Shown in pieces: positions 18,265 through 44,686 of a stretch of 54,778 nt of DNA (its first letter is position 1; each line of letters starts with the position of its first letter). Origin of the DNA: a virus (lineage: Duplodnaviria; Caudoviricetes); the IMG/VR virus record IMGVR_UViG_3300032092_000040, positions 1 to 54,778 of that record; one strand, 5' to 3'. The notes below the pieces were generated by a model, which worked only from the letters and a program-made list of their open reading frames with translations, did not search any database and had not been told where the DNA came from. The position numbers were made by a program, and so were the translations under genes.

Positions 18265-20451
<2,187 letters not shown>

Positions 20452-26699: not shown

Positions 26700-26707
26700 T
26701 ATAAATA
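26700..26707 (+). promoter_or_regulatory. T4-type late promoter
   Basis: Perfect TATAAATA upstream of RBS AAGGAG and ATG 26751. Confidence 0.75.
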
Positions 26708-28743: not shown

Positions 28744-30215
28744 TTAAACTGGTATTCTATACTTGATATGAAGTATAGGAAGATGCGAGACATTTTCTAT
28801 CTTTATATTACTACCCTGTTCTTCAGGCACTATTGCTCGACTTAACTCAAGGTATTGGTATTCAGTAGATCCGTTTGTTTTGGTGTTTGAAGCCGTATCG
28901 CCTTCAATACCATCTGCAACCGAAAGAACCTGATAGATTCCATTATTGGATGTGGAGTTACTAATCCTTATATAAGAACCAGCAGTGATGCCTATGTTTG
29001 GTGTAGCACCAAACAATCTTGTTCCGCCAACAGGTACTTTGTATGCAAGAAGATTTTTAGTACCAACTGAAACAGGATTTAAGAATCTGAAATTGATTGT
29101 TGCTGGTGGTAACACAGTTCCATCTAGATCAATTCCCGATGGTGGTATGGTGTAGTGTGGTGTTGTTTGGTCAACTAGATTTCGTTGATATGCCTGATTA
29201 AATGATCCTATTGAACCATTATGTTCATATCTCGGTGATGTCGAATCAAAAATGGAACTAGTTCCACTTACAGCAATACCTTGAAGAACAATCTTGTTTC
29301 CATTTTCTATCAAACCTACAAACTTTCTTGTCTTATTTGTGCATGTGATTATGTTTGGATTTGTACCAGACGCATTTGATTTGGTTGCACTTGTAAACTC
29401 GCTGTATGAATTTATGCTACAAGTTATACCCAAGGGCAGTGCTTGTAGTTTACTAATCTTTTCTGCTACTGTGGGTATCCCTGTGACCAGATCAACGTAA
29501 GAAAGACCTGTAGCACCATTCGATAATGAAAGCCCATCCATTTCTGTTTGAGCAAAATTGATATAAACATGATGAGGTGATTTGCGGAATGAGATCTGAT
29601 TACTTGGAGTTAGTTGTGAAGTTATTGGTGATTCTTTGCTATTGAATGCAATGTATGCAAACTCTTTATAGAAATTTTCATAATGCTGCCCCTCAACGTT
29701 GACATTTGACGGAAAATCTGCATTTATCCATTCTTGTTGAGTCATGGATTGTGGTGCAACATACTTGTACTCACCCAAAAATGCGTTTGGTATAGTCTTG
29801 CCGTGCATGATCACGGCAAAGGTATTTCCATTAGCAGTTCGGACTGATGTTTGAAACTTTGTTGCAAGGTTCTTTACGTCAATTGAATTTACAGCACCGA
29901 TAGTTGTATTCAATGTTATATCAACTGTTCCGCCTGTAACATAAACACCACCCTGATTTAGCGTTGTTGTACTATTTCCAGATGTTTCATTGCTTCTACT
30001 AGGACCAATACTCGGATCATCCGCTGGGTCTGTAATATCTTGAATTCTTTCTAAGTAGTTTGGTATCTGAAGAACCGAAGAGTAGAAAGAATCTTTTCCG
30101 TGTGTTACCCCATTGAACGTATCTTTGCTTGCCCAACTAATATCCTTTTTGATATCGGTTGTGGTAAGACTTATGGTGATAGGGTGGTTAGAGATCGGTG
30201 TTGGATTTGTTATGT
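28744..30215 (-). repeat. conserved C-terminal module, copy A
   Basis: NHPITISLTTTDIKKD...ENVSHLPILHIKYRIP, highly similar at DNA level to 33945-35405 and 38675-40130. Confidence 0.92.
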
Positions 30216-33200
30216 CTCCACCACCACCTTCCTCTTCTCCCTGCAACAAGGGAAGTGTTTCTGGAGTTAGAACTTCACCAAACTCAGATCTGCTTGCATC
30301 ATAATCGAAGTTAGTATATGAGAATACTACAGTTTCTCTAAATCCTCTTTGATTTGGATTGTAACCAGGATCTGTAGGTTGTGGATTTAGTTTTCCTGTT
30401 CCTAAAGTTGGATCCCAACCAGTTCCAAGAGCGACCTTAGAATCAAAAATTGTTTTTGGCGTTCCCGCAGTCTCCCCTTCTGCAAAATAGAAGAACATGA
30501 ATGGGTTTTCTGCCTGTCTATCAGCATTGTTTATGAGGGAACTGGGTCTGGTGCCATTTGGGTGTGGCAATCTACCATAGCGGAAATTTTCGTGGGGTAC
30601 ATTAGAATAAATCCACCCATAAGGAGCATCGCCGTTTGTTGTGTTTGCGGGAATAGTTTTGTGGAAAGTAAACCATTCGCCTCTTGTGCTACTATTTGGA
30701 TTTAATGTTCTTCGGCTTATTCCTGATGGTTGTGTTGCCAAGAAAGAAAGCATTGCATTCCGATATCTGCTAGAAAACACGGGGAACCCTATTTTTGATG
30801 TTGGTCCTACAATTTGATTTGGACCAGCATTACCATTTGCGTCTCTCTCAAAGGGATATCGTAAATCAGAAATTATAGTGCGTAATTCTTTGAGGTTGCG
30901 TGGATTCCCGTATAAGGGATGTCCAATTGGGCGTATTCTGGTTTTACCACGAATACCAGTTTTAACTGAGTTGGTGCCGCCATCATCTATCCACACAAAG
31001 AAGTCTAATGGTTCAATATATGTTCCAATTCGCGCATCTTTACCCGTGGCAGGATTTATATCAACTTTAGTTTTATACTGTTGAACATTGTCAACTAAAG
31101 CATGATCAAATGCCGCTACCTCTGTTTCTAGCGCAGTATTGTTGGTAGAATTTATAGTTGAATGGTTTGGAACAGCACTTATGTATCTAGTTACATGCCC
31201 ACCAAACGCAGGAGATGGGCTGCTGATGTTATAATCGATTCCATTTGCAAAATTACTATTATTGAAATTTTCAGTTCCGTGCATGTATGTGTTTCGCACA
31301 ATCAGATTTTCATGTAAACATGTAAAATCAAGTTGTTGTGTGGCTGTTTCTGTAAAGATTAAGCAATCTTCAAATGTGAGATCTTTTACATGTCTTGTGA
31401 TATAGTGTTGATATGTTTTACCATCAGCACAAGATCCGGGCCAATTTTTGCTGGGATCGTAGAAAAACAAAGGTATATTTCCATCAGATCTACCAGAAAT
31501 ATTCCACTGTGATGTAAACACGATATCTTTTAGTGGTCCAGACCCACCAAGTCCAAGTCTTGCGTTGATATCGGAATATCTCTTACTTCGTGGACTTGGA
31601 TTGTTAAATCTATAGAAAATAAAATTCTGAACTCCAATATGATCTTTTACAAAACTCAATGCTCCTTGCACCGTTTGGAAAATGTCTGAATGTACAGCAA
31701 ATAAAGGCGCACTGGTGGTGTTGACATAATTTCTAGAGACAAAGCAATCATATATCAATGGTTGGTATACTAGACTGCTTGGATATCTAAACACATCGGC
31801 TTCATATCTACTCAAATTACTATTGATAAATGAATCAATATCAATATCCGCTGGTTGTTCTATCACACTCAGTGTGCTATCCGTCACAAAAGAAGTTATT
31901 ACCTGATTTGTGGTCATGTTTCCTCTACTGTTAGCAAACTCAGGGTGTGCCCAGCAAAAGTCAAACGTATATCCAGCATTGGTTAGTGTGAACCCAAGAT
32001 TATTTGTGAGTTCCAAAGTTCTTTGTGTCGGTTGTATAAAAATTCTTGGGGTGGTGAGCGTAAGACCACCGCTATTTGGGTCATCAATTGGTATTTCTAG
32101 GCTAGCAACAGGTCTAAAATTATTACCCGCTAAAACATCTATAGAAGAATTCAACCCCTTTTTAATATTAGAGGGCCAGACTGCTCCAAGTATATCTTGT
32201 TCTCCTTTAATATCTGGCGCACCAACATAAGAAATATTATACGTCATACCAAGACTATCTGCCCACTTGATGAGTTCCTTAGTATCTCGTACAGTTCCAT
32301 CAACTGCTGTATCATCTATCCACAATCTTGGACTTACAATAGGTCCGCAATTGGCTTTTGCTGTTGTATTTGTGTATTCATAGGTATTAGCATTTACCGA
32401 TGATGTTCCAAGTACAGGATGATTTTGCCTTTCTTCTGGAATATTGGAAGTAATATTTTTACCCAAAACACCCTTTTTTACTTTCCATCTACTAAGTCTA
32501 ACTAATGTTTGTCCGTTACCGGGATCGGGGGGGTTTAGTCCTTCAAGTTCTGGACCAATGCCAAATATATACTCGCTATAGGGCCAGTCCCCCTCAATGT
32601 AGCAATTCTTATATCTCATTAAGTGAGTTGCAATATTACCTCTAAATGCTTTCTTTATAGGGTGATCACTCAGCGCATCATCTGTTGTTGGTCTTGTATT
32701 AAAATTTTGAAGATGGTAGCCTCTTAGTTTGGCTTTATATTTTGCAGCAGAAGTTCCTATGAAACCGCTTGGGTCTGTGATAGGTTCATTTTGAATTTCG
32801 GGATCCGTGGTGATTATTACCCAACGCATTTTAGAGAAAACTTTATACTCAATTGCATTGGAATCCTTGAATCCCATCTTATGACCAAGTGCTTTACTTT
32901 CAGGAGTTGTTAATTCCATCAGAAAAATCGTCCCGCCGCCAACCTCTCCCTCATTATCAATTGCAACTTCATTCGCTAGAGTATTACAAAATGCGTGCTT
33001 AAGACGCATAAGTTTTCTATAGGCAAAGTCAATAGACTTCATTGGCTGAGTTTTGGAACCAGAGCGAGTTAAATCGTCAACTCCAGTCTCGGCATTTACA
33101 TATACAGATCCAGTAAACAAAGAATTGTTAAAATTGCTAGAAAAATAGAATGAACGAATGCCGCTATCGTTTCTTCTTATAATTTTCATCTGTTCGGGGG

Positions 33201-33930
33201 TTTCCCAATATGGTGGAATAGAATTTACGGCAAATATATCTGTACTTGAGTTATTGTGCTTCCCTGCGATAATTCTGGGTTTTCCAAACTTTGGGTAGAC
33301 AACGGCTTGTAATTCATGATGCGGTGTAAAAGTTACATTATTTGGTGTTCTAAAACCGTCGCTATTTGTAAACAGGGTGTTTGTTTGACAAACATCACCG
33401 CTATCGATAAGACCAGATGAAGCATCAATTCTAATCCAATATGCAGTTACATCTTTGACTGGGTGGTGTGATGGTTCTCTTACAATCACTCTTTTCGAGG
33501 AACCATTGAGGAAAAATTCCACGCGATCTATATCACCGGCACCGTGAAATGCTATGACACCAACATCAAGATGTGTTGGATTATCGATGTTGTTGTTACC
33601 ACCAACTGTTTGATATGGAACCGTGACCCACCTACAAATAACATTCTTCTTTGCAAAAACATTGTCTGAAGTTGCAGGATAACTCTGTAACGTGTGTCCA
33701 ATTTCAATGCCTGTAGTTGGATCAATGAAAAACAAAGGGACTTCTGCTTGAAGCCCTTGTTCATTTCTATTCAGATCGGTTTGCCATATATTTACACTAG
33801 CAACCTGATCTGCTGTAGCAATACCCGCAGTATCTTGTGGCAGTAATGTTGTGGGAAATGGCTGTGTTAGAGTTGTAAAGGTATTTCTACCAGAATGTGC
33901 TTGAATTTTTGGTGGGTTGAATAATTGCAT
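28744..33930 (-). CDS. giant modular protein A (beta-helix/depolymerase-like N-region plus conserved C-terminal module)
   Basis: 1728 aa; IDRVEFFLNG, VYVNAETGVDD...GSKTQPMKSIDFA (pectin-lyase-like N-cap), HSDIFQ; last ~480 aa shared with the two neighbours. Confidence 0.8.
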   Translation of the reverse strand: MQLFNPPKIQAHSGRNTFTTLTQPFPTTLLPQDTAGIATADQVASVNIWQTDLNRNEQGLQAEVPLFFIDPTTGIEIGHTLQSYPATSDNVFAKKNVICRWVTVPYQTVGGNNNIDNPTHLDVGVIAFHGAGDIDRVEFFLNGSSKRVIVREPSHHPVKDVTAYWIRIDASSGLIDSGDVCQTNTLFTNSDGFRTPNNVTFTPHHELQAVVYPKFGKPRIIAGKHNNSSTDIFAVNSIPPYWETPEQMKIIRRNDSGIRSFYFSSNFNNSLFTGSVYVNAETGVDDLTRSGSKTQPMKSIDFAYRKLMRLKHAFCNTLANEVAIDNEGEVGGGTIFLMELTTPESKALGHKMGFKDSNAIEYKVFSKMRWVIITTDPEIQNEPITDPSGFIGTSAAKYKAKLRGYHLQNFNTRPTTDDALSDHPIKKAFRGNIATHLMRYKNCYIEGDWPYSEYIFGIGPELEGLNPPDPGNGQTLVRLSRWKVKKGVLGKNITSNIPEERQNHPVLGTSSVNANTYEYTNTTAKANCGPIVSPRLWIDDTAVDGTVRDTKELIKWADSLGMTYNISYVGAPDIKGEQDILGAVWPSNIKKGLNSSIDVLAGNNFRPVASLEIPIDDPNSGGLTLTTPRIFIQPTQRTLELTNNLGFTLTNAGYTFDFCWAHPEFANSRGNMTTNQVITSFVTDSTLSVIEQPADIDIDSFINSNLSRYEADVFRYPSSLVYQPLIYDCFVSRNYVNTTSAPLFAVHSDIFQTVQGALSFVKDHIGVQNFIFYRFNNPSPRSKRYSDINARLGLGGSGPLKDIVFTSQWNISGRSDGNIPLFFYDPSKNWPGSCADGKTYQHYITRHVKDLTFEDCLIFTETATQQLDFTCLHENLIVRNTYMHGTENFNNSNFANGIDYNISSPSPAFGGHVTRYISAVPNHSTINSTNNTALETEVAAFDHALVDNVQQYKTKVDINPATGKDARIGTYIEPLDFFVWIDDGGTNSVKTGIRGKTRIRPIGHPLYGNPRNLKELRTIISDLRYPFERDANGNAGPNQIVGPTSKIGFPVFSSRYRNAMLSFLATQPSGISRRTLNPNSSTRGEWFTFHKTIPANTTNGDAPYGWIYSNVPHENFRYGRLPHPNGTRPSSLINNADRQAENPFMFFYFAEGETAGTPKTIFDSKVALGTGWDPTLGTGKLNPQPTDPGYNPNQRGFRETVVFSYTNFDYDASRSEFGEVLTPETLPLLQGEEEGGGGDITNPTPISNHPITISLTTTDIKKDISWASKDTFNGVTHGKDSFYSSVLQIPNYLERIQDITDPADDPSIGPSRSNETSGNSTTTLNQGGVYVTGGTVDITLNTTIGAVNSIDVKNLATKFQTSVRTANGNTFAVIMHGKTIPNAFLGEYKYVAPQSMTQQEWINADFPSNVNVEGQHYENFYKEFAYIAFNSKESPITSQLTPSNQISFRKSPHHVYINFAQTEMDGLSLSNGATGLSYVDLVTGIPTVAEKISKLQALPLGITCSINSYSEFTSATKSNASGTNPNIITCTNKTRKFVGLIENGNKIVLQGIAVSGTSSIFDSTSPRYEHNGSIGSFNQAYQRNLVDQTTPHYTIPPSGIDLDGTVLPPATINFRFLNPVSVGTKNLLAYKVPVGGTRLFGATPNIGITAGSYIRISNSTSNNGIYQVLSVADGIEGDTASNTKTNGSTEYQYLELSRAIVPEEQGSNIKIENVSHLPILHIKYRIPV

Positions 33931-33944
33931 AATTTTCTACTCTT

Positions 33945-35405
33945 TTAATTTGGTATTCTATACTTGATATGAAGTATAGGAAGGTGTGATACATTTTCTA
34001 TCGTTATGTTTTTGCCAACAGCCTGTTCTTCAGGCACTATTGCTCGACTCAACTCAAGGTATTGGTATTCAGTAGACCCGCTTGTTTTAGTGTTTGAAGC
34101 AGTATCACCTTCAATACCATCTGCAACCGAAAGAACTTCATAGATTCCATTGTTGTTGGACGCGGAACCACTTATTCTTACATAAGATCCAGCAGTGATA
34201 CCTATGTTTGGTGCTTCACCAAACAATCTTGTACCACCAACAGGTACTTTGTATGCAAGAAGATTCTTGTTGCCTATTCCTATAGGATTCAAGAATCTAA
34301 AGTGTATTGTTTGTACTGGTCCTGTTGTTGGTGCTGGAATAACATAGTGTGGAGAAGTTGGATCATCTATTGCAATTCGTTGATAAGTTGTATTTACAGA
34401 TCCAATTCCACCATTATGTTCGTATCGGTTAGCACCGCTGAAAATAGAATTAAATCCACTTGCAGCAATTCCTTGAAGAACAATCTTATTTCCATTTTCC
34501 ACAACTCCAACGAATTTTCTTATCTTGTTATTGCAAGTCACATCCGATGGGTTTGTACCAGACGTATTTGATTTGTTTGCACTTGTAAACTCGCTGTATG
34601 AATTTATGCTACAAGTTATACCAGGGGACAGTGCTTGTAGTTTACTAATCTTTGTTGCTACTGCGGGTGTTCCTGTGACCAGATCAACGTAAGAAAGACC
34701 TGTAGCACCACTTGACAATGAAAGTCCATCCATTTCAGGTTGAGTAAAGAAAATATAAGTGTGGTGAGGCGATTTGCGGAATGAGATTTGATTGTTTGTT
34801 ATTTGTGAAACGACTGGCGATTCTTTGCTATTGAATGCAATGTACGCAAACTCTCTATAGAAATTTTGATAGTGAAGACCTTCTGGATCTATGTTATTTG
34901 GACTACCCAAAGCCTCCCACTCCTCCCTTGACAGGGATTGCGGTGCAACATATTTGTACTCACCAAACTGTGTACTTGGTATAGTCTTACCATGAAGAAT
35001 GACTGCAAAAGTATTTCCATTAGCAGTTCTAACTACAGACTGAAACTTTGTTGCAAGGTTCTTTACGTCAATTGAATTGACAGCACCAATAGTTGCATTC
35101 AACTGCACATCAACTGTTCCGCCTGTAATATAAACACCGCCTTGATTGGGTATCAGTACACTGTTTCCTGATGTTTCATTGCTTCTACTCGGTCCAATAC
35201 TCGGATCATTCGCTGGATCTGTAATATCTTCTATTTTCTCTAAGTAGTTTGGTATTTGTACTATGTCGGAATAGAAAGAATCTGCGCCGTGAGTTGTTGC
35301 ATTGAACGTATCTTTACTTGCCCAAGTAATATCCTTTTTAATATCGGTTGTGGTAAGACTGATAGTGATGGGGTGGTTAGAGATCGGTGCTGGATTTGTT
35401 ATAGT
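33945..35405 (-). repeat. conserved C-terminal module, copy B
   Basis: Same module as copies A and C. Confidence 0.92.
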
Positions 35406-38400
35406 TCCTGTTTGATCTTCTTGAAATGTACTTCTGGGCAGAACTTCACCAAACTCGGATCTAGTTGCATCATAATCAAAGTTTGTGAATCTATATTGTA
35501 GATTGTTCTTGAATCCTCTTTGATTGGGATTTTCTTGCCAACCAAGTTTTTGTTTATTTAAAAATTGATTGTTTGGATCTATATTCAGTATTCGTGCATT
35601 TGTTTGAGATAGAGTTAGTCCAGTGCTTGGGTTTTTTGGAAGAATGAAGTTTTCGTAAGTTATTGCTGATGGCATCCACCCATAATTTGCCCCAACAAAA
35701 TCTCCCTCTAATGTATTTTGATACCAAATACCTCTTGTAGTACTATTTGGTTGGTTTTCAACCAATCCAATATTATTTGCTATTGCATGATCTTTATCTG
35801 TTGCTAGAACGGGGAAAAATATATTCGAATTTGTTCCTATTCGCTGATTTTCTCCAGCCTGACCATTTACTTTTTCAAATGGATAATTTAAATCTGAAAG
35901 GAGGGTTCTAGCCTCTCGCATATAGTTCGGTCTACTACCATCCGGTCTACCTCTAAAATCTATACTCACCTTTTTCAACCCATCTGGGCTTGCTGTACCA
36001 TCGCCAACAAATATAATCAGTTGTTTTTCATAGGGATCTAAAAGACTTTCATCGTTGTCAGACATACAGTATTGCTGAACATTGTCAAAAACAACCATGT
36101 CATAGTGGAGACAGTCATCGTTATTTAAATTGTTTCCCCCACTTGGATAATTCAAGGATGGTGCTGATGGAACGGCATCTTTATAACGATATACGCTACC
36201 TCCAAAGGTGCTTTGTCCGAGAAAACTGTTGTTAGGTATTGGTCGATTTGATACACCGGATACAATCTGTGTGTTGTAAAATAGAACATTTTCCTGAGGA
36301 CACGTTAGAACTATTTGTTGAGATCCATCTGGTGTCTTCAAAAGACAATCAGAAAACACTATATCTCTAACATATCTACCCCCGAAAAATTCATAAGTGA
36401 GTCCATCACCACCTTCGGTTATAGAATAGTTGTGCAATCTGTCTGCCAGCGCATTTATTATTCTTCCTGAAATAGACCATTGCCCTTCTTGTCTGACATC
36501 GACTAATGGTCCTTCTCCGGAAACTCCGTGTCTTGCATCTATATCGTAATATCTTTTGCTTCTTGGGCTTGGATTGTTGAATCTGTGAATTATTAGATTG
36601 TTTATACCAGCAACTTTTGATTTGAAAGAATAAAAACCACTATTAGTTTGAAATAAATCTGAGTGTATTCTAAAAAGGGGCGCATTAGAAGCATTAACAT
36701 AGTTGTGAGATCTAAATCCGTTTATGGTAAACAGTTGATAGTAAACTCCACTAGATCTAATGATATCTGCTTCCCATTGATCTAAAGTGGAGTTTACTAA
36801 GATATCAATCGAGAACTTTGCTGGTTCTTGCACATGCCTAATCACCGAGTTTGTTACAAATGCCTTTAGAGCAGTATTGTTCCATATCTGAGCATTTGGG
36901 CTTGATCCTTCTGGATCTGTCCACGGAAATTCAAATGTATATCCCATAGATGTTGTGAAGCCAACCCTATTTAATTGAGCCTTTACAAATATGGCTGGAA
37001 CACTACTAAGAGATAAACCACTTGGAACCGGAGTTATACCATCTGAAGCAAATACACCTTTCTTATCATCTGAAAATTGAACCGAAAGATTGCTTTTAAA
37101 ATCTGGTACTGGCACCATGGTGGTGGAATAGGTCATTCCATTTGCTTCAGCCCACTCATATATTTTGTACCTATTTCTCTCCCCACCATCAACTACTGTG
37201 TTGTTCAACCATTGATATGGTGGCACAAACCCCAATGCTGTTGATACCAATGATTCAAGTGATGTTCCATATTCATATGAACCTACTGATGTTTCATTGA
37301 ATGAGAGTGCTGGAAATTCTTGATCCGTTGCAGTTATAGTTGAGGTATTGAAATTTGTTGTTCCCGTTTTTACCTTCCATATTTTGTAATTATTCTGTAA
37401 TTTGGCATCTGGTGCCACGCCTTGATTTATCTGAGAATAATCTAGTTCCGGACCCATACCAAAAGCATATTCAGACCAGGGCCAGTCCATCTCCACAACG
37501 CAGTTGTTTAGTTTTATTAGTTGTACACAAATGCCTTTGCCCATATTTTCTTTTGTGAGTTTCCCTGTGCTTTGAAGATGACATCCTTTTATTTTGGCTC
37601 GTCTACCATCAGCAACTATTGGATCTCGTTCAATAGTCAACCAGCGCATTCTCGCAAAAGATTCATATTGTCGTAATCCCGTCCAAGAAACCGCACCCCA
37701 TTTGTGACCATTGTACAATTCTGGTCCTTCGCCAAGATCTTTGAGGTATATTGTTCCCCCACCAACATCTCCCTGATCTTTAATTTCTATCGTTGAAAAT
37801 GGGTTGTAGTGTTTGTGCTTGAAAGCCATCAATCTATTGATAGCAAATTCAATTGTTTTAAATGGTTGCTCAGATGAACCAGATCTAGAAATATCATCAA
37901 CACCATTTGAAGTTGCATCCACATAAACGGCTGTATTAAACAATGTGTTTGATGTGTTTGTTGAAAAATAGAAAGATCGTATTCCCGTATTTTCTGATGT
38001 TCCCACCATCAACCCAGTATCGGGATCTGTATATACAGCAGTTGCATTATATGCTAGGGTGTTTTTATCATTGTTGTGCTTTCCAACAAGTATTCTTGGT
38101 TTTCCATTTTTTGGATATATAACGGCTTGCAATTCGTGATGTGGTTTTATTTCTATTGATGTTGGCTTTGGCAAACCAGAGGTAGTCTCCCCCCTAGAAA
38201 CTATATCACCACTATCAATTGGGAACAAAGAAGAATCTAATCGCACCCAATAGGCACTCACATCCTGCTCTGGATTATATGTGACTTCTGTGACTGTTAT
38301 TGGATTTGATATCCCGTTGAGATAAAAAACAACTCTATCTATTCCACTATGATGAAACGCGATAACTCCAATATCAAGATATGATGGATTTCTTTCCCCG

Positions 38401-38660
38401 CCAATAGTTTGGTATGATGGTGTTAGCCATCTGCAAACTACATTTTTTTCCGAACCCGACAAACGAAGGGGATAGTGAATTGGATCTATATCACCAATCA
38501 TATCTGGCAATATACCATTTTCCGTCAATTTATCTGCTATGAGAGGCTCAGTGACTCCTCTCCAAACACCAGCATCATTTACCGCATATGGTTGTGATAT
38601 TGTGCTAAACTGATTGATAGAATTTGATGGAACTATCACGGGGGGCTTGAATAATTGCAT
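33945..38660 (-). CDS. giant modular protein B, full-length paralog of A
   Basis: 1571 aa; same MQLF.PP start, IDRVVFYLNG, VYVDATSNGVDD...GSSEQPFKTIEFA, HSDLFQ, RFNNPSPRSKRY; shared C-terminal module. Confidence 0.8.
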   Translation of the reverse strand: MQLFKPPVIVPSNSINQFSTISQPYAVNDAGVWRGVTEPLIADKLTENGILPDMIGDIDPIHYPLRLSGSEKNVVCRWLTPSYQTIGGERNPSYLDIGVIAFHHSGIDRVVFYLNGISNPITVTEVTYNPEQDVSAYWVRLDSSLFPIDSGDIVSRGETTSGLPKPTSIEIKPHHELQAVIYPKNGKPRILVGKHNNDKNTLAYNATAVYTDPDTGLMVGTSENTGIRSFYFSTNTSNTLFNTAVYVDATSNGVDDISRSGSSEQPFKTIEFAINRLMAFKHKHYNPFSTIEIKDQGDVGGGTIYLKDLGEGPELYNGHKWGAVSWTGLRQYESFARMRWLTIERDPIVADGRRAKIKGCHLQSTGKLTKENMGKGICVQLIKLNNCVVEMDWPWSEYAFGMGPELDYSQINQGVAPDAKLQNNYKIWKVKTGTTNFNTSTITATDQEFPALSFNETSVGSYEYGTSLESLVSTALGFVPPYQWLNNTVVDGGERNRYKIYEWAEANGMTYSTTMVPVPDFKSNLSVQFSDDKKGVFASDGITPVPSGLSLSSVPAIFVKAQLNRVGFTTSMGYTFEFPWTDPEGSSPNAQIWNNTALKAFVTNSVIRHVQEPAKFSIDILVNSTLDQWEADIIRSSGVYYQLFTINGFRSHNYVNASNAPLFRIHSDLFQTNSGFYSFKSKVAGINNLIIHRFNNPSPRSKRYYDIDARHGVSGEGPLVDVRQEGQWSISGRIINALADRLHNYSITEGGDGLTYEFFGGRYVRDIVFSDCLLKTPDGSQQIVLTCPQENVLFYNTQIVSGVSNRPIPNNSFLGQSTFGGSVYRYKDAVPSAPSLNYPSGGNNLNNDDCLHYDMVVFDNVQQYCMSDNDESLLDPYEKQLIIFVGDGTASPDGLKKVSIDFRGRPDGSRPNYMREARTLLSDLNYPFEKVNGQAGENQRIGTNSNIFFPVLATDKDHAIANNIGLVENQPNSTTRGIWYQNTLEGDFVGANYGWMPSAITYENFILPKNPSTGLTLSQTNARILNIDPNNQFLNKQKLGWQENPNQRGFKNNLQYRFTNFDYDATRSEFGEVLPRSTFQEDQTGTITNPAPISNHPITISLTTTDIKKDITWASKDTFNATTHGADSFYSDIVQIPNYLEKIEDITDPANDPSIGPSRSNETSGNSVLIPNQGGVYITGGTVDVQLNATIGAVNSIDVKNLATKFQSVVRTANGNTFAVILHGKTIPSTQFGEYKYVAPQSLSREEWEALGSPNNIDPEGLHYQNFYREFAYIAFNSKESPVVSQITNNQISFRKSPHHTYIFFTQPEMDGLSLSSGATGLSYVDLVTGTPAVATKISKLQALSPGITCSINSYSEFTSANKSNTSGTNPSDVTCNNKIRKFVGVVENGNKIVLQGIAASGFNSIFSGANRYEHNGGIGSVNTTYQRIAIDDPTSPHYVIPAPTTGPVQTIHFRFLNPIGIGNKNLLAYKVPVGGTRLFGEAPNIGITAGSYVRISGSASNNNGIYEVLSVADGIEGDTASNTKTSGSTEYQYLELSRAIVPEEQAVGKNITIENVSHLPILHIKYRIPN

Positions 38661-38674
38661 AATTTTCTACTCTT

Positions 38675-40130
38675 TTAATTTGGTATTCTATACTTGATAT
38701 GAAGTATAGGAAGATGCGAGACATTTTCTATCTTTATGTTTTTGCCAACAGCCTGTTCTTCAGGCACTATTGCTCGACTCAACTCAAGGTATTGGTACTC
38801 GGTTGAACCACCTGTCCTAGTATTTGAAGCAGTATCACCTTCAATACCATCAATGGTTGCAAGAACTTGATAGATTCCATTGTTGGAGGCGGAACCACTT
38901 ATTCTTACATAAGAACCAGCAGTGATACCTATGTTTGGTGAAGCACCAAACAATCTTGTACCACCATTTGGTACTACTTTGTATGCAAGTAAGTTTTTAC
39001 TACCTGTTGCTATTAAATTACTGAACCTTAAGTGAATTGTTGCTGGTGGTAAGATATTACCATCTAGATCAATTCCCGATGGTGGTATGGTGTAGTGTGG
39101 TGTTGTTTGGTCAACTGGATTTCGTTGGTATGCCTGATTAAATGATCCTATTGAACCATTGTGTTCATATCTTGGGGACGCCGAATTAAAAATGGAACTA
39201 GTTCCACTTACAGCAATACCTTGAAGAACAATCTTGTCATTTCCTATCAAACCTACAAACTTTCTTGTCTTATTTGTGCATGTGATTATGTTTGGATTTG
39301 TGCCAGATGTATTTGATTTGGTTGCACTTGTAAACTCGCTGTATGAATTTATGCTACAAGTTATACCCAAGGGCAGTGCTTGTAGTTTACTGATCTTTTC
39401 TAGTACAGCAGAAGTTCCTGTTACCAGATCAACGTAAGAAAGACCTGTAGCACCATTCGATAATGAAAGCCCATCCATTTCAGGTTGAGTGAAGGAAATA
39501 TAAGTGTGGTGGGGCGATTTGCGGAATGAGATCTGATTGTTCGTTATTTGTGAAACGACTGGTGATTCTTTGCTATTGAATGCAATGTATGCAAACTCTT
39601 TATAGAAATTATCATAGTGAAGACCTTCTGGATCTATATCACTTGGTCTGCCCAAATTTTCCCACTCTTCCCTTGGCATAGATTGTGGTGCAACATATTT
39701 GTACTCACCAAACTGTGTACTTGGTATGGTCTTGCCATGAAGAATGACTGCAAAGGTATTTCCATTAGCAGTTCGGACTGATGTTTGGAACTTTGTTGCA
39801 AGGTTCTTTACGTCGATTGAGTTTACAGCACCGATAGTTGTATTCAGCGTTATGTCAACCGTTCCACCTGTGACAAAGACACCACCTTGATTTGGCGTTG
39901 TTGTACTATTTCCTGATGTTTCGTTGCTTCTACTAGGACCAATACTCGGATCATTCGCTGGATCTGTAACATCCTCAATTCTTTCTAAGTAGTTTGGTAT
40001 TTGTACTATGTCGGAATAGAAAGAATCTACACCATGAGTTGTTGCATTGAACGTATCTTTACTTGCCCAACTAATATCCTTTTTAATATCGGTTGTGGTG
40101 AGACTTATGGTGATAGGATGATTAGAGGTT
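38675..40130 (-). repeat. conserved C-terminal module, copy C
   Basis: Same module as copies A and B. Confidence 0.92.
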
Positions 40131-42646
40131 GGTTGTGTGGTTGTGTTGGCAGTTTCTTCAGTTATAATTTGATCATAGTTGTATAGCCACCAATCGTATA
40201 AATTGTTGGTCATGAATTCAGCATATGAGTTTCCTTTAAAACTAGGACCAACCCAATCTATTCCAATTCCTGCTGTCGTTACTGTATCACTTTTATGATC
40301 AAATATTGTCGGCTTGACTCGGAAATCATATTTTCCAGTATTTTCAGCAGTTGGATCTATTAAGTAAGTTTGTAACGTAGACCCGTTCGCTGATTGGAAA
40401 TAAAATCCTGTGCTGAAAATTGAAGTGTCGTTGGTAAATGTTTTGTCCAACAACAATTTAGAATTTGTTGCTGAGTCGGTGTAATCAAAATCTGAAGTTA
40501 GACCAACAGCAGAAATTGATGCGGATATTTGACTGTCTGTTGATTTACACAGCCATATATTGTTGTATAAACATGTGACTCCATCTAAATTCTTGTTGTA
40601 AGCCCACCATCTATAAATTGCTTTGGAATCCGGAATCATCACCCCACCAACAGTTATGCCTGGTAACCAAGAATGATTCCATGCAGATCCCGAAAATTTT
40701 CCATTGTAAATGGCATAACCTAATCCAGATTGATAAAAATCATCGATGTATTCTTGTGGGGCATTTACTATGAACGGTGTACTTCCACCGCAAAATTCCG
40801 CTGTTGTTCCCAAAATGTACGAACCGCTTGACCCACTAGACAAAGAACTTGTCGGCAATAAATGATTTGTGCTTAACTCAGTTTTTACTAAGTTTTTTAC
40901 TACATGAAGTGGTCCTGTTAAAAAATTATTTCTTATAGCAAAGTTATTAAATTTCCACCACGGCATAGTCAAAGTTTCTTCTTTGTCTATCTCCACACTA
41001 CCGACGTTATTGAGTATCTTAAAATTGGCTAGATCTCCCCGCATACCACAATTTCTTTGTTCCACCTCATATATTTTCAAACCTCTATCGGAGAACAACA
41101 CATTATTTTTAATAGTAAAACCAGGATTGCCGCTTATTCCGTTATACTCTTGAATTGCCACACCGATATTGGTTGGGGTGTAGATAAAATTCTTTTCAAT
41201 ATTAATGTCGGCACACCTGTCATAGAATGCCATTCCATTCCCGTGTTGTGTTGCTATTGTAAAAATATTATTACCATAAACATTGTTTCCAGAACTACCA
41301 GACATGTAAATGCCGGTTTTAGTTCTCCACCCAACAACGGTGTTATATTTAATATTTACTCCGGTGCAGCCAGAGAAATGCAATCCTCTATAGAAAGATT
41401 TATAACATAGATTTCCTAAAACAAGAGAGTTGCTAAAGTTGCCATGGAAAGCAGCATTGTCTGCGTGGTGAAATGCATTATACTTAAATACTATATTTGA
41501 ACTTATTTTAAAATTGTCTGCATTAGAAGAGTAGCCGACATTCTCTTCACGGAATTCAAAAATATCAAATCCTATAAATTGAATATTTTTAACTCTACAG
41601 AGATTAATACCAATTCTTAAGACTGGAATTCGTGGGGCTATTGTGCTATCTGATCTCACATAAAAATATTTTTCTTCGCCATCAAGTTCAAAAGCATATT
41701 CGTAGGTATTTCCGAGCCAAGATTTATTGCCAATAAAAGCAATATTTCTTACGGGTGAGTATGATGGTTTATCTAGGATATTAATCTTGCGTTCGGCATA
41801 ACTAATGCCAACCACTTTATGGAATGACAAATTGTTATTTCCGCCTTGCATAACAAGCGTGGTATTGGTCCAGTCTGTGGAAATTCCCGAACCGTCTCTG
41901 GCAAAGACCAAATCCATCAATTGATTTGTTCCAACGCCAGTTATCCCATGTAAAATCCCATCAGTTGTTGAACCATACGGGACGAATCTGGAACCAGATA
42001 TGTTTACAGAGGGAAAAGTAAATGACTCTGGGTACGAAAGATATAATTCTGGGTATTCAGAACCAGTTTCACCTCTATTCAATAAACACGGAGACAGCGT
42101 TGATGGAGATGTTAAAGATACATTGTGTGGAAGATTATAATCATAATCATACAATGAAAAATCTATCTTTTTTAGATCGGTTGTAAATGGTAAATGTTCT
42201 GGTTTAAATTTGTATCGTTTTATTCCCGAGAATATACCATTAACTCCATATGACGTATCTAATACAAGATCAATGGATCCCTTAATTTTACAGCCATGCA
42301 ATTTTTCGGATACGACCACAATGTTTTTTTCTCTAAAGGTTTCATCACCAAAAAATAAAACTTTGTCTGTGGCAAATGCTAGAGCAGAGCCAGGAGTATT
42401 TGTGATATTGTCTAAATCATAGACACCTTCTTTTGCGATGATGTATCTTATCTCAGCATCAGCACCGGTAGAACCTATCATCGAATAGGCTTTTTGTGGC
42501 GTGTGATAGGGATTTGAACTGTCCCCATTCCCCGTAATATCACTGCCGTTTGGAGAAATGTAAATATATGTTCCTGGTGACTTTAGAATGTTTGCGATAA
42601 ACAAATCATAGTCTTCAAGAAAATTCAAGAAATTTTGATCCGACAT
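38675..42646 (-). CDS. giant modular protein C (right-handed beta-helix N-region plus conserved C-terminal module)
   Basis: 1323 aa; YISPNGSD..GNGDSSNPYHT N-cap, Asn-ladder repeats (IKYNTV, VYGNNI, HGNGM, IEKNFI, IKNNVL); N-region otherwise unlike A and B. Confidence 0.8.
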   Translation of the reverse strand: MSDQNFLNFLEDYDLFIANILKSPGTYIYISPNGSDITGNGDSSNPYHTPQKAYSMIGSTGADAEIRYIIAKEGVYDLDNITNTPGSALAFATDKVLFFGDETFREKNIVVVSEKLHGCKIKGSIDLVLDTSYGVNGIFSGIKRYKFKPEHLPFTTDLKKIDFSLYDYDYNLPHNVSLTSPSTLSPCLLNRGETGSEYPELYLSYPESFTFPSVNISGSRFVPYGSTTDGILHGITGVGTNQLMDLVFARDGSGISTDWTNTTLVMQGGNNNLSFHKVVGISYAERKINILDKPSYSPVRNIAFIGNKSWLGNTYEYAFELDGEEKYFYVRSDSTIAPRIPVLRIGINLCRVKNIQFIGFDIFEFREENVGYSSNADNFKISSNIVFKYNAFHHADNAAFHGNFSNSLVLGNLCYKSFYRGLHFSGCTGVNIKYNTVVGWRTKTGIYMSGSSGNNVYGNNIFTIATQHGNGMAFYDRCADINIEKNFIYTPTNIGVAIQEYNGISGNPGFTIKNNVLFSDRGLKIYEVEQRNCGMRGDLANFKILNNVGSVEIDKEETLTMPWWKFNNFAIRNNFLTGPLHVVKNLVKTELSTNHLLPTSSLSSGSSGSYILGTTAEFCGGSTPFIVNAPQEYIDDFYQSGLGYAIYNGKFSGSAWNHSWLPGITVGGVMIPDSKAIYRWWAYNKNLDGVTCLYNNIWLCKSTDSQISASISAVGLTSDFDYTDSATNSKLLLDKTFTNDTSIFSTGFYFQSANGSTLQTYLIDPTAENTGKYDFRVKPTIFDHKSDTVTTAGIGIDWVGPSFKGNSYAEFMTNNLYDWWLYNYDQIITEETANTTTQPTSNHPITISLTTTDIKKDISWASKDTFNATTHGVDSFYSDIVQIPNYLERIEDVTDPANDPSIGPSRSNETSGNSTTTPNQGGVFVTGGTVDITLNTTIGAVNSIDVKNLATKFQTSVRTANGNTFAVILHGKTIPSTQFGEYKYVAPQSMPREEWENLGRPSDIDPEGLHYDNFYKEFAYIAFNSKESPVVSQITNNQISFRKSPHHTYISFTQPEMDGLSLSNGATGLSYVDLVTGTSAVLEKISKLQALPLGITCSINSYSEFTSATKSNTSGTNPNIITCTNKTRKFVGLIGNDKIVLQGIAVSGTSSIFNSASPRYEHNGSIGSFNQAYQRNPVDQTTPHYTIPPSGIDLDGNILPPATIHLRFSNLIATGSKNLLAYKVVPNGGTRLFGASPNIGITAGSYVRISGSASNNGIYQVLATIDGIEGDTASNTRTGGSTEYQYLELSRAIVPEEQAVGKNIKIENVSHLPILHIKYRIPN

Positions 42647-42656
42647 TTAAAATCCC

Positions 42657-43067
42657 TTAATCCCAATCTCTCTTACTGGACACGGTTAGTTTAAGTTTTG
42701 CATCAGTTATCTGTGCGTTTGCTGGAAGCGATGACAAGTTAAAAGCCATTGCTGTTCTTGTCGGTGTTCTCGCTTGAATGACTGTGCCGAATCCGGGAAA
42801 TCCATCAGAACCATCTGATGGAGCATCATCTCCATCATTCCACGGATTCAATAGTCCGATTGGAATTTGTGTTGCTTCTTCAAGATTTCCACTGTTCGGC
42901 AATACTACAGTTCCAGCCCACCTATCATCTCCAAAGGCTGATGATGGATTGTGGTAATAGAAAGTATCAAACTCTGGTATGACTATGATCTCAGTATCAG
43001 TAAAATTTGTTTGAGATAATAGTCTTTTATTGCTAATGAATCGTTTGTTTATAAAGTCACTACGCAT
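42657..43067 (-). CDS. small protein ending in an N-terminal DNRLRE-like half-domain
   Basis: RTAMAFNLSSLPANAQITDAKLKLTV matches the R.LL.FDLS.LP..A.I..A.L.L opening of DNRLRE domains, then the protein stops. Confidence 0.6.
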   Translation of the reverse strand: MRSDFINKRFISNKRLLSQTNFTDTEIIVIPEFDTFYYHNPSSAFGDDRWAGTVVLPNSGNLEEATQIPIGLLNPWNDGDDAPSDGSDGFPGFGTVIQARTPTRTAMAFNLSSLPANAQITDAKLKLTVSSKRDWD

Positions 43068-43070
43068 GTA

Positions 43071-44645
43071 TTAGGTTCCTATGTAATAGAGAGTGGCACC
43101 ATTGATGGTTGACCATGCATGAATTCTATTCAAGTTGTCTGTTTCGATGAATATCTGATCTCCGTTGTACAATGGGAATCCCCCTTGCGAAGAAACTGCG
43201 GTTGAGAAGCCAATGAATATGGTTCCTGTATTGTTCAGATCACTTCGGAAATGTACACCGCTGCTTAGAGCCACAGATGAGAATATGGTTGATGTGCCAG
43301 CACCACCAGATGCTATAGCAACCTTATTTGCAGTTCCACCTGTTGGTTGTACTATTGCCTTGATATCAACTTTCAATCCGTTTGCTGTGACAAGACTGTT
43401 GGTAACAGATGTGCTGGTGAGTATGTCTTCTATGGTACCGATATTGGTATTAATTGTGCTAACTGCACTGTTTATGGCAACTGTGCTTGCATCTTGAGTC
43501 TGTAGATTGTTTCCAGTGAATTTCAGTGAGTTCAGTGCAGTGAGTGCCTCACCCGTCAATCCAACATAGTCTCCACAGGCTCCAAGCACACGCAGTGTGT
43601 TTGTTGCAATGTTTGAAAGGTGCGTGAGACCAGTTCCACCAATATTCACGGTTCCTGTCACTTCAACTGGAATTACACCGGTGCCAGTATAGCCATGAAT
43701 TTGTACTACTTGACTTGCGGCGGTAGCGTTTCCTAATGATATTCCGCTGATGGTCACACTTCCCAAACTTAGTCCGGTGACATTTGCCGTCACTCCTATA
43801 GAACCAGCCGCAAGATTCACAAACAAAGCACCAGTGCTGTCTACACTGAATGGGACTTTGGTGCTGTAGTTGTTGATGTTGGTAAGACCGTGCGAGAAGA
43901 CTGAAACGGGCCAGGCACCAGAAAGACCAACAACACGGACGGTGTCTTCTGCGTTCGTTGCTGTATCAGTTCTTAGGCTAATTCCATTGGCATAAGGTGA
44001 TGCACCAGTGGATGCCCGCATCAATCTAATTGGGAATCCAGAGGTTGAATCTGCAACGGGACTAGTTAATGACTCAACGGTAACGGTATTAAACACAGAC
44101 ACGCTATCAGAACCATAAGTCAATGAACGAATGTCGAGATCTGTTGCAGTAACTCCAACTGCCCATCCGCCAGAGTAGCCAACGATTCTCACAACATCTT
44201 GACCCGCAGCACCAGCCGTCGCTGGATCTCCCGCAGTCAATGCACGAATACCAAAGTTGGTTGCAGTTACTCCAACTGCCCAACCACCAGAATATCCAAC
44301 CACACGAACGACATCTTGAGTGATTGCGCCAGCAGTTGTGGGATCTCCCGCGGTCAATGATCGAATATCAAGATCTGTTGCGGTAACTGCATGAGTGTTT
44401 ACATTTACTGTTCCCGTTACAGTAACCGGTCCACCGACACTTGATACAGCAACTGAAGGAGTATTTACCACAGCAACGGGTAAACCGTTTGATGATGTAA
44501 CTCTGGTTCCACCTTCTGCAACACCACCGTAAGCAATCTTCATTACTTGAAAATGATTACCCTCTGCTGCGGAGTAGTCTGTTGCTATTACTGCTTCTCC
44601 AGAAAATCCTGATACTGCCACATTGTTGTCCGTGTCGTAAGCCAT
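43071..44645 (-). CDS. probable virion structural protein with internal 39-aa repeats
   Basis: Thr/Gly/Val-rich; repeats ATDLDIRSLTAGDP...QDVVR.VGYSGGWAVGVT; C-terminal NTGTIFIG...GFPL domain; RBS AAGGA and late promoter upstream. Confidence 0.7.
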   Translation of the reverse strand: MAYDTDNNVAVSGFSGEAVIATDYSAAEGNHFQVMKIAYGGVAEGGTRVTSSNGLPVAVVNTPSVAVSSVGGPVTVTGTVNVNTHAVTATDLDIRSLTAGDPTTAGAITQDVVRVVGYSGGWAVGVTATNFGIRALTAGDPATAGAAGQDVVRIVGYSGGWAVGVTATDLDIRSLTYGSDSVSVFNTVTVESLTSPVADSTSGFPIRLMRASTGASPYANGISLRTDTATNAEDTVRVVGLSGAWPVSVFSHGLTNINNYSTKVPFSVDSTGALFVNLAAGSIGVTANVTGLSLGSVTISGISLGNATAASQVVQIHGYTGTGVIPVEVTGTVNIGGTGLTHLSNIATNTLRVLGACGDYVGLTGEALTALNSLKFTGNNLQTQDASTVAINSAVSTINTNIGTIEDILTSTSVTNSLVTANGLKVDIKAIVQPTGGTANKVAIASGGAGTSTIFSSVALSSGVHFRSDLNNTGTIFIGFSTAVSSQGGFPLYNGDQIFIETDNLNRIHAWSTINGATLYYIGT

Positions 44646-44678: not shown

Positions 44679-44686
44679 TATTTATA
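44679..44686 (-). promoter_or_regulatory. T4-type late promoter for the minus-strand structural operon
   Basis: TATTTATA on + strand, i.e. TATAAATA on - strand, 33 nt upstream of ATG 44645. Confidence 0.75.

Follow-up and report, generated by a model that had tools for sequence, protein, structure and literature searches.

In an uncultured T4-like phage, a small protein and a module shared by three giant proteins probably make up a single folded unit

We analysed a 54,778-nucleotide stretch of viral DNA (the whole of IMG/VR record IMGVR_UViG_3300032092_000040, hereafter the window), in which one small gene lies ahead of three genes for giant proteins. Judged from its genes, the source is an uncultured, T4-like phage; comparison with PHROG recovers T4-type replication genes for DNA polymerase, a UvsX-like recombinase, a DnaB-like helicase, primase and SSB, and the DNA polymerase shares 50% identity with its counterpart in Synechococcus phage S-RIM8. 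The cluster is positioned between the gp32 SSB gene and the ribonucleotide reductase genes, outside the structural block, and has the following layout.

44679..44686, minus strand: TATAAATA, T4 late-promoter consensus motif, 34 nt ahead of the start codon of P0005 on the upstream side
43071..44645, minus strand: P0005, repeat-rich conserved gene, 524 aa, directly upstream of the SP gene
42657..43067, minus strand: open reading frame of the small protein (SP, P0001), 136 aa
38675..42646, minus strand: giant 1 (P0002, 1323 aa), payload residues 1-838, shared module 839-1323
33945..38660, minus strand: giant 2 (P0003, 1571 aa), module at 33948-35387
28744..33930, minus strand: giant 3 (P0004, 1728 aa), module at about 28747-30198

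The window thus holds one SP gene and three modules. The payloads ahead of the module measure ~838, 1090 and 1245 aa in giants 1, 2 and 3, those of P0003 and P0004 being related to each other and that of P0002 being different. Between the SP gene and ATG 42646 of P0002 there is a 10-nt gap with a TAA directly before the ATG, as the first-pass annotation had described, and the two genes are in different frames. The same annotation had SP stop at RTAMAFNLSSLPANAQITDAKLKLTV; this sequence is present, but seven further residues, SSKRDWD, follow ...LKLTV before the TAA.

The module common to the three giants spans ~485 aa, and compared with the P0002 copy, those in the other two giants show 86% and 83% identity. 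All three copies contain, in the order first reported, ITISLTTTDIKKDI(S/T)W, SIDVKNLATKFQ..VRTANGNTFAVI, FNSKES and the terminal LPILHIKY. The parts of the module in giant 1, together with two parts of SP, are referred to throughout the text below.

38678..40132, minus strand: module of giant 1 (485 aa), shared sequence
40043..40132, minus strand: module segment 1, P0002 839-868 (PTSNHPITISLTTTDIKKDISW...), with interface residues 839-850; directly follows SP in a natural fusion
39728..39841, minus strand: module segment 2, P0002 936-973 (...NSIDVKNLATKFQTSVRTANGNTFAVILHG); 942-947 predicted antiparallel with SP 123-127, and 965 with SP 109
39557..39607, minus strand: module segment 3, P0002 1014-1030 (FYKEFAYIAFNSKESPV), with interface residues 1016-1029; aligns to DNRLRE F.S.E
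38732..39556, minus strand: beta-rich insert of ~275 aa, P0002 about 1031-1305, modelled confidently by itself
38678..38731, minus strand: module segment 4, P0002 1306-1323 (IENVSHLPILHIKYRIPN); strand 1314-1318 predicted between SP 121-127 and SP 28-29; aligns to DNRLRE P.L.I.Y
43008..43067, minus strand: SP residues 1-20, with M1 R2 S3 D4 F5 N7 K8 R9 invariant; outside the predicted interface
42678..42770, minus strand: SP residues 100-130 (RTPTRTAMAFNLSSLPANAQITDAKLKLTVS), a beta-hairpin matching the first hairpin of the DNRLRE/CBM96 domain

SP belongs to a conserved family: of 59 candidates, 47 are relatives at E <= 1e-3. Nearly all of these end ...W(D), and the N-terminal peptide MRSDFINKR is common to the family. 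Since length and end are kept in these 47 relatives, we rule out that SP is a pseudogene or remnant. Comparison with PHROG gave no family, tail-fibre chaperone families included, Pfam gave none except a faint TGFb_propeptide match, and a search of the SP profile against PDB sequences gave no relative; membership in the tail-fibre assembly chaperones was not indicated by a match to any known family.

What SP does resemble is the beginning of a DNRLRE domain. Its hairpin aligns with positions 28-58 of the 164-column NCBIfam profile NF033679 (DNRLRE_dom; E 3.8e-5, 23.8 bits), and it carries the first beta-hairpin motif of that domain (R.L..F.L..LP..A.V..A.L.L), here as R..M.FNLS.LP.NA.I.DA.L.LT. 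All scores lie under the curated cut-off of 34 bits (SP, 23.8; its fused relative P0084, described below, 23.2; best of five related records, 18.6), and no match to Pfam CBM96 (PF24517) was found as judged by the Pfam gathering score. Aligned by hhalign to 11 true DNRLRE domains from three Chloroflexota genomes, the SP family gives a probability of 91.7% (E 7.8e-7), with SP 101-131 on template residues 44-74. A phage BUCT551 protein named 'DNRLRE domain-containing protein' was dropped as a reference because it is a collagen-like Gly-X-Y protein. We conclude from these alignments that the DNRLRE likeness of the SP hairpin is real, though below the family cut-off. In an Atlas feature search CBM96 clusters came out on top at 0.80-0.85, which we treat as a lead only.

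For the module the likeness is much fainter. Neither the giants nor the module alone match NF033679 by HMMER, hhalign of the whole module against DNRLRE gives no match (probability 0.1%), and an Atlas search with the N-terminal part of the module returned no usable match and no DNRLRE signal. When the four module segments, which were picked with knowledge of the motifs first reported, are aligned to DNRLRE in register, they cover 73 columns with a score of 22.8 (E 0.0037, probability only 8.9%), a score that none of 150 randomly drawn segment sets attains. It comes from segments 3 and 4 alone, since it is unchanged in 3 of 23 permutations; in these segments FNSKES and LPILHIKY fall, in order and in register, on the final two motifs of DNRLRE (F.S.E and P.L.I.Y). 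The DNRLRE likeness of the module half is therefore weak and confined to these two motifs. The split DNRLRE-like domain originally proposed is thus supported by profile comparison in the SP hairpin, at a score below the cut-off, and in the module in FNSKES and LPILHIKY only. According to the report on the CBM96 structure 7VBO (PMC9971899), the sandwich requires its N-terminal strand as well as its C-terminal ones. Compared with DNRLRE/CBM96 domains, the chain here is broken after the first hairpin, with the remainder in another gene, and the module half has two large insertions (~80 aa and ~275 aa).

Structure prediction links the two proteins far more strongly. Models of SP with the module, predicted from unpaired alignments, reach ipSAE values of 0.76, 0.81 and 0.79 (median 0.79), against 0.00 for the best of three controls; 58 of 80 solved complexes attain that mark, as do 2 of 110 mismatched pairs. 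The runs share at least 68% of contacts, with partner pLDDT of at least 61. The predicted interface takes in P0002 residues 839-850, 934-971, 1016-1029 and 1309-1323 on the module side and residues 21-34, 49, 53-55, 64-74 and 101-136 of SP, so that the confident interface sought by the first-pass annotation falls on the same four segments that it had named. Contact pairs show constant index sums (944+125 and 946+123; 1315+125 and 1316+124), which indicates that SP 121-127 pairs with an antiparallel strand on each of its two sides. Many invariant module residues fall in the interface segments, and PDB sequence searches found no solved complex of like kind.

The module had been proposed not to form a complete fold by itself, and its interface segments are indeed poorly modelled without SP. 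AF2 of the module alone (31 rows) gives pLDDT below 50 at module residues 1-37, 39-90, 133-139, 143-148, 173-181, 183-188 and 477-485, stretches that largely coincide with the interface segments, and mostly above 80 at residues 190-476. A fold search of the PDB with this model gave no match at E <= 1e-3 (TM at most 0.16), and the same search of BFVD gave 11 matches at E <= 1e-3, with TM at most 0.20 and most targets unnamed; neither search of the module model yielded a convincing structural relative of the ~275-aa insert.

Related genomes keep the two pieces together, as anticipated. Each of five related records examined, one of them 86% complete, has one SP match and one module match, and of the 9 related viral loci, 8 have the SP gene next to a giant that bears the module, while the remaining one is cut off by the contig end. 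Spacing and gene order vary among these relatives, the SP gene following the giant in one locus (L004). A P0005-like gene lies directly upstream of the SP gene in all 12 related loci read; P0005 has no family match and nothing meaningful among PDB sequences, and SP, module and P0005 have no match in cultured phage records.

The pieces occur in three architectures. The window shows, three times, SP separate from a payload-module protein. Three relatives (L021, L022 and L023) show the reverse, with the order P0005-like gene, SP domain with a C-terminal extension, and module-only gene; the SP-plus-extension proteins have 632, 633 and 981 aa, and the module-only genes encode 458 aa, 451 aa and, in L023, a product ended by the contig end. 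In L022 and L023 the start of the module-only gene lies 4-7 residues ahead of NHPITI, and in L021 it is more divergent (MAGSPIIVNLSTTD); further module-only proteins are P0087, P0089 and P0101. The third architecture is the single-gene homolog with both halves fused that the first-pass annotation had suggested looking for, found once, in P0084 (650 aa). Its residues 1-134 match SP 1-135 (41% identity, E 2e-30) and its residues 141-649 match P0002 842-1322 (28% identity, E 6e-34), with a 6-residue linker joining the SP end to the module start and no payload. P0084 is a singleton on one 3418-bp contig, and no second fused form was found among 51 matches or in viral or metagenome contigs. From an alignment of 16 rows, AF2 models the fusion poorly, with a mean pLDDT of 52.9 and pTM of 0.49, the junction being mostly below 50; P0084, like P0002 and P0004, has nothing meaningful among PDB sequences. 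The breakpoint is common to the three architectures within a few residues.

On this evidence we consider it very probable that SP and the module make up one unit as obligate partners. In the mechanism we propose, the two would be encoded by separate genes and become one folded unit by strand interleaving, with the terminal hairpin of SP (101-131) and an earlier strand (26-30) slotting between module strands in the sheet order module 942-947, SP 121-127, module 1314-1318, SP 28-29. The SP strands would thereby complete a DNRLRE/CBM96-like beta-sandwich to which the module gives the other strands and the ~275-aa insert; the sandwich fold of the whole composite and obligate co-folding in vivo are what we infer from the model and the fusions. 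The payload would always sit at one junction, between the SP C-terminus and the module N-terminus, so that the chain could be broken on either side of it and the payload carried by either piece. The idea of SP as a common adapter for giant payloads thus survives as two halves of one unit, though not as an adapter role only, SP carrying the payload itself in three loci. The fuller reading, in which this constant joint is the most likely means by which the virion carries depolymerase-like beta-helix payloads, is the one we favour as reasonably probable, with payload activity and docking as its putative parts. Attachment points may be the invariant free N-terminal peptide of SP, the module insert or both; the invariant residues among SP 1-20 fall outside the predicted interface, which makes them a candidate site for a third partner, possibly the P0005-like protein that is always encoded next to SP. 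We give somewhat less than an even chance to the more general proposal that this is a portable two-piece connector, a sandwich split after its first hairpin whose halves co-fold and accept cargo on either half.

Part of the evidence could also be accommodated if SP were a folding or assembly chaperone of the module, acting transiently or as a tip protein and sharing no domain with it. Tail-fibre assembly proteins or tip adhesins such as T4 gp38/gp57A and Mu Tfa are small proteins encoded beside a fibre gene that act on the C-terminal part of the fibre; SP is likewise small, it is predicted to bind the C-terminal part of the large fibre-like proteins encoded next to it, and the module interface segments are poorly modelled in its absence. 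SP differs from them in lacking any family match, PHROG chaperones included, and in the position of its gene, which is upstream of the giants in most loci, not downstream. Moreover, its covalent fusion to the module N-terminus at the exact boundary and its fusions to payloads point to a permanent structural partner, and in the predicted complex the strands of the two proteins alternate within one sheet in place of a surface grip. We therefore regard a chaperone as unlikely.

Slightly less likely again is that the SP-module unit is not part of the virion and that the giants are soluble enzymes, released at lysis or acting in or on the infected cell. The location of the cluster outside the structural block and the lack of a confident structural-family match would fit such enzymes. 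Against this, residues 28-81 of P0002 match the tail protein family phrog_4577 weakly (E 6.5e-5), which, with a para_beta_helix repeat at E 0.48, suggests that its payload may begin with a beta-helix-like cap, and the size and architecture of the giants presumably resemble those of tailspikes. These beta-helix and tail matches are limited to P0002, and the payloads have no matches in Pfam and no relatives among PDB sequences. A T4-type late-promoter motif upstream also speaks for the virion; TATAAATA, which we take to be the T4 late-promoter consensus, has two copies in the window, one of them ahead of the first gene of the operon. The late-promoter motif counts do not exceed chance (2 found for 1.63 expected; 11 found for 8.7 expected), and it is the positions, not the counts, that are suggestive. 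Virion association is thus read from a weak PHROG tail match and from a single promoter-like motif that is no more frequent than chance predicts.

It is very improbable that SP and the module are independent and that coincidence or artefact accounts for the likeness of the hairpin, the interface in the model and the one fusion; sub-threshold DNRLRE scores, the singleton status of P0084 and the lack of a confident AF2 composite would allow it, but the complex score of 0.79 against 0.00 in three controls, three architectures sharing a breakpoint within a few residues, and strict, adjacent co-occurrence oppose it. Finally, programmed readthrough or frameshifting that fuses SP to the first giant, making the split only apparent, is suggested by nothing but the short gap between the genes and can be rejected, since the frames differ and a second in-frame TAA precedes the ATG, gene order and spacing vary among relatives, the natural fusion joins SP to the module and not to the payload, and the 3' end of SP is not repeated before giants 2 and 3, no SP-end cassette recurring in the window.

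The preferred two-gene unit has partial counterparts in known systems. Conserved docking parts are known to allow phages to swap receptor-binding or depolymerase modules, and in branched or modular tailspike systems (Ackermannviridae TSP1-4, phage G7C gp63.1/gp66, the SP6/K1-5 adapter) several alternative large enzymatic spikes per phage dock, via N-terminal domains of folded proteins, on a conserved part, with recombination swapping parts. The present system would be similar in placing alternative large proteins on a conserved docking part and in exchanging variable and constant parts, and different in that docking is predicted to occur by two-chain completion of a beta-sandwich via a C-terminal module, with the payload on either partner. 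In chaperone-usher pili, donor-strand complementation likewise completes an incomplete beta-sandwich with a strand from another polypeptide, but there one strand is donated between like subunits and builds a polymer, whereas here a hairpin and a further strand of a dedicated small protein would interleave with a large module; the pilus proteins have no sequence relation to SP or the module. Among the matches listed for literature on phage tailspike strand complementation, phage CBM96 or DNRLRE/CBM96, we found no description of docking by two-gene completion of one domain; the same literature yielded none of cargo allowed on either half.

If the connector reading is true, a single small gene would be enough for a phage to carry three different giant enzymes, and cargo could be exchanged in evolution through a chain break on one side of it or the other; this would be a new principle for the building of phage appendages and would offer protein engineering a ready-made split-domain docking pair. 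The three natural architectures predict that the halves bind tightly and fold only together, and they mark the exact permissive junction. The group consists of uncultured T4-like phages whose genes described here are without a cultured relative, and the finding also points to new biology of virions or enzymes in metagenomes of freshwater and marine origin.

By sequence, the source of the window record (54,778 nt, viral, ~30% complete) is a T4-like phage, and PHROG matches identify a T4-type DNA polymerase, a UvsX-like recombinase, a DnaB-like helicase, a primase, SSB and a ribonucleotide reductase; the polymerase shares 50% identity with its counterpart in Synechococcus phage S-RIM8. On the minus strand, five genes lie head to tail, with the SSB gene on one side and the reductase region on the other:

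44645..43071, minus strand: P0005, a 524-aa neighbour of the small protein
43067..42657, minus strand: P0001, the small protein (SP), 136 aa
minus strand: P0002, giant 1, 1323 aa
minus strand: P0003, giant 2, 1571 aa
minus strand: P0004, giant 3, 1728 aa

All three giants share a C-terminal module of ~485 aa (P0002 839–1323); relative to the P0002 copy, the other two show 86% and 83% identity. The payloads preceding it are related to each other in P0003 and P0004, and the P0002 payload is unrelated to them. The giant 1/giant 2 and giant 2/giant 3 junctions (window 38640–38700 and 33910–33970, minus strand) share a stretch of at least 50 identical nt that takes in the module end, 14 nt of spacer (AAGAGTAGAAAATT) and the start ATGCAATTATTCAA, an identity that marks a tandem duplication of the giant 2/3 type unit. 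As the first-pass annotation had stated, a 10-nt gap separates the SP and P0002 genes, with a TAA before the P0002 start codon, and the four motif blocks it named all lie inside the common module; its description of the SP end held in part, as ...LKLTV is present and is followed by SSKRDWD rather than being terminal. The SP and P0002 genes are in different frames, and an SP-giant fusion made by readthrough or frameshift is ruled out by the frames, the stop codons and the variable gene order.

The T4 late-promoter consensus, TATAAATA, occurs in exact form 34 nt ahead of the P0005 start codon, on the correct strand; the motif is no more frequent in the window than expected by chance, and only its place upstream of P0005 is suggestive. 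The only other exact copy (26700–26707, plus strand) lies 44 nt upstream of a 618-aa ORF (26751–28607) that has no family match and converges on the giants. Elsewhere in the window, two collagen-like tail-fibre genes (15205–16800 and 18274–20451, plus strand; many PHROG tail-fibre matches) enclose a virion structural protein gene (phrog_1645), and the ORF that begins at 18274 has ATAAATA 19 nt upstream of it. The closest genome-contig relative of the window ribonucleotide reductase (67% identity) is on a 3096-nt contig of a Melainabacteria MAG (L025), possibly phage DNA binned with that genome.

SP belongs to a conserved family: of 59 candidates, 47 are relatives at E <= 1e-3, with lengths of 87–221 aa and mostly 127–146 aa. 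The N-terminus is invariant (M1 R2 S3 D4 F5 N7 K8 R9) and nearly all relatives terminate in ...W(D), so that SP is not a gene remnant. In nine related loci from viruses, comprising five distinct variants, the SP gene lies downstream of a P0005-like gene, and in eight it adjoins a module-bearing giant, the ninth being cut by the contig end; in one related locus (L004), the giant precedes SP. SP and giants were expected to co-occur, and five related records (86% complete in one case) each contain a single match to SP and a single match to the module; the window contains one and three. At L005 (10001–11317), the 438-aa P0006 carries an SP domain with a Pro/Trp-rich extension of ~300 aa and the adjoining 1410-aa giant retains payload and module, so extras are possible on both partners. 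A 1610-aa giant ORF in L007 (10460–15292) corresponds to ORFs of 107 and 1509 aa in the near-identical L009 (10460–15251), a split that is a frameshift or sequencing error.

The first-pass annotation had envisaged a homologue with both halves in one gene, and a search for longer SP relatives found one, P0084 (650 aa), a singleton on one 3418-bp contig. Its residues 1–134 correspond to SP 1–135 (41% identity, E 2e-30) and 141–649 to P0002 842–1322 (28% identity, E 6e-34), with six residues between the last conserved Trp of SP and the NHP(I/L)TI start of the module, and no payload. The two halves have diverged from the window genes to a similar extent, and they are joined in frame at the domain boundary; both points argue against a chimera. 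No second SP-module fusion was present among 51 matches of an exhaustive profile-free search, or in viral and metagenome contigs.

The reverse split is seen in three loci syntenic with the window locus (L021, L022 and L023), the first of which likewise lies between SSB and reductase genes. Here a P0005-like gene is followed by an SP domain extended at its C-terminus (protein lengths 632, 633 and 981 aa) and then by a stand-alone module gene. The module gene begins a few residues ahead of NHPITI in L022 and L023 and has a more divergent start in L021 (MAGSPIIVNLSTTD); it encodes 458 aa in L021 and 451 aa in L022, the L023 copy being cut by the contig end. Further module-only proteins are P0087, P0089 and P0101; further SP-plus-extension proteins are P0085, P0099, P0105, P0111 and P0006. 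The SP-fused extension is part of the following genes and proteins:

L021, 3584–5482: SP-fused extension
L022, 4084–5985: SP-fused extension
L023, 3043–5988: SP-fused extension
Proteins with the extension: P0085, P0095, P0099, P0105

This extension is a conserved ~480-aa domain with motifs such as RWY.WGQRNF.LH.PFGRP and NQYPRWNALF; neither Pfam nor NCBIfam gives a match for P0085, and the domain may represent a new enzyme family. The proposal that SP is a common adapter is too simple, as these three loci have the cargo on SP and a separate module gene. Because the module is retained as a ~450-aa gene even with the cargo on SP, it must serve some function itself. Together, the P0084 fusion and the reverse split indicate that the variable part always sits at one junction, with the chain cut before it, after it, or nowhere. 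Full-text literature searches brought up no description of the SP-module system; its fused and reverse-split forms come from the present analysis.

Complex prediction with SP (49-row alignment) and P0002 839–1323 (31 rows), using unpaired alignments built by us, gave ipSAE values of 0.76, 0.81 and 0.79, and none of three controls scored above 0.00. The ipSAE mark is attained by 58 of 80 solved complexes and also by 2 of 110 mismatched pairs, a calibration that is only a rough guide with unpaired alignments. Contact agreement between runs was at least 68% and partner pLDDT at least 61, and since no SP-module-like complex is among solved structures, a pass through memorised structures is unlikely. 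The predicted interface comprises SP 21–34, 49, 53–55, 64–74 and 101–136 and, apart from a few additional single residues, module stretches 839–850, 934–971, 1016–1029 and 1309–1323, which are the four motif blocks picked out in the first pass. Index sums are constant among the lowest-error contact pairs (942+127, 944+125, 946+123; 1314+126, 1315+125, 1316+124; 1315+29, 1316+28), a pattern that we read as antiparallel strands in the order module 942–947, SP 121–127, module 1314–1318, SP 28–29; from this contact list, rather than from coordinates, we infer a single sheet woven from both chains. In an AF2 model of the module alone (31 rows), pLDDT was below 50 at residues 1–37, 39–90, 133–139, 143–148, 173–181, 183–188 and 477–485 and mostly above 80 at 190–476, so that in the model the ~275-aa beta-rich insert folds alone and the interface segments do not, although low pLDDT in these segments can have other causes. 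For the P0084 fusion, AF2 with 16 rows gave a model of low quality along its whole length (mean pLDDT 52.9).

The joint had been proposed to be a DNRLRE/CBM96-like domain split between SP and the giants. SP 100–130 matches positions 28–58 of 164 of the NCBIfam profile NF033679 (E 3.8e-5; 23.8 bits, below the cut-off of 34), and six of seven further SP-domain proteins give an equivalent partial match (E 5.8e-5 to 0.012). In six frames of five related records, the SP hairpin was the sole NF033679 match, never reaching past profile position 61. Aligned by hhalign with 11 true DNRLRE domains, all above the cut-off and from three Chloroflexota genomes, SP 101–131 scored a probability of 91.7% (E 7.8e-7). 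We consider the hairpin DNRLRE-like, though below family thresholds. An Aeromonas phage BUCT551 protein annotated as 'DNRLRE domain-containing' (L024 292–945, NC_052986) consists of collagen-like Gly-X-Y repeats with no visible DNRLRE domain, and that annotation looks spurious.

For the module, neither HMMER nor hhalign with the whole module (probability 0.1%) found a DNRLRE match, and an Atlas feature search with its N-terminal part found nothing; CBM96 clusters ranked top (0.80–0.85) in an Atlas search with P0084 95–340, which is a lead only. When module residues 1–30, 98–135, 176–192 and 468–485 were kept and two insertions omitted, the four segments gave a 73-column alignment with the DNRLRE profile, in register as expected (score 22.8, E 0.0037, probability 8.9%), a score reached by 0 of 150 random ordered segment sets from the remaining module (mean 11.7, sd 2.3, max 21.8). 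This support is modest, since the choice of segments was guided by the motifs of the first-pass annotation. Three of 23 segment permutations retained the score, with just 19–21 columns, and in each of them segment 4 still follows segment 3, so the signal lies only in FNSKES and LPILHIKY. Sequence evidence for the rest of the domain in the module is thin.

The P0002 payload has a weak PHROG tail-protein match (E 6.5e-5) and a parallel beta-helix repeat match (E 0.48), the only matches found for the payloads, and all three window cargoes start with what we presume to be a beta-helix cap motif typical of pectate-lyase-like tailspikes. Alternatively, the giants and SP could be soluble enzymes that are not part of the virion. 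SP could also act as a chaperone, a role against which the covalent fusions, the predicted woven sheet and the lack of a chaperone family match argue. A coincidental association of SP and module is made unlikely by the complex-prediction controls, the common breakpoint and the strict co-occurrence.

SP residues 1–20 are invariant yet outside the predicted interface. P0005 (window 43071–44645, minus strand) contains internal repeats ...VRVVGYSGGWAVGVTAT..(D/G)IR.LTAGDP... and has no family or structure match; a P0005-like gene lies directly upstream of the SP gene in 12 of 12 related loci read. In the arrangement we favour, the SP-module joint would be the constant part and the cargo the variable part, and the joint would be mounted on the phage particle through SP 1–20 or a P0005-like protein.
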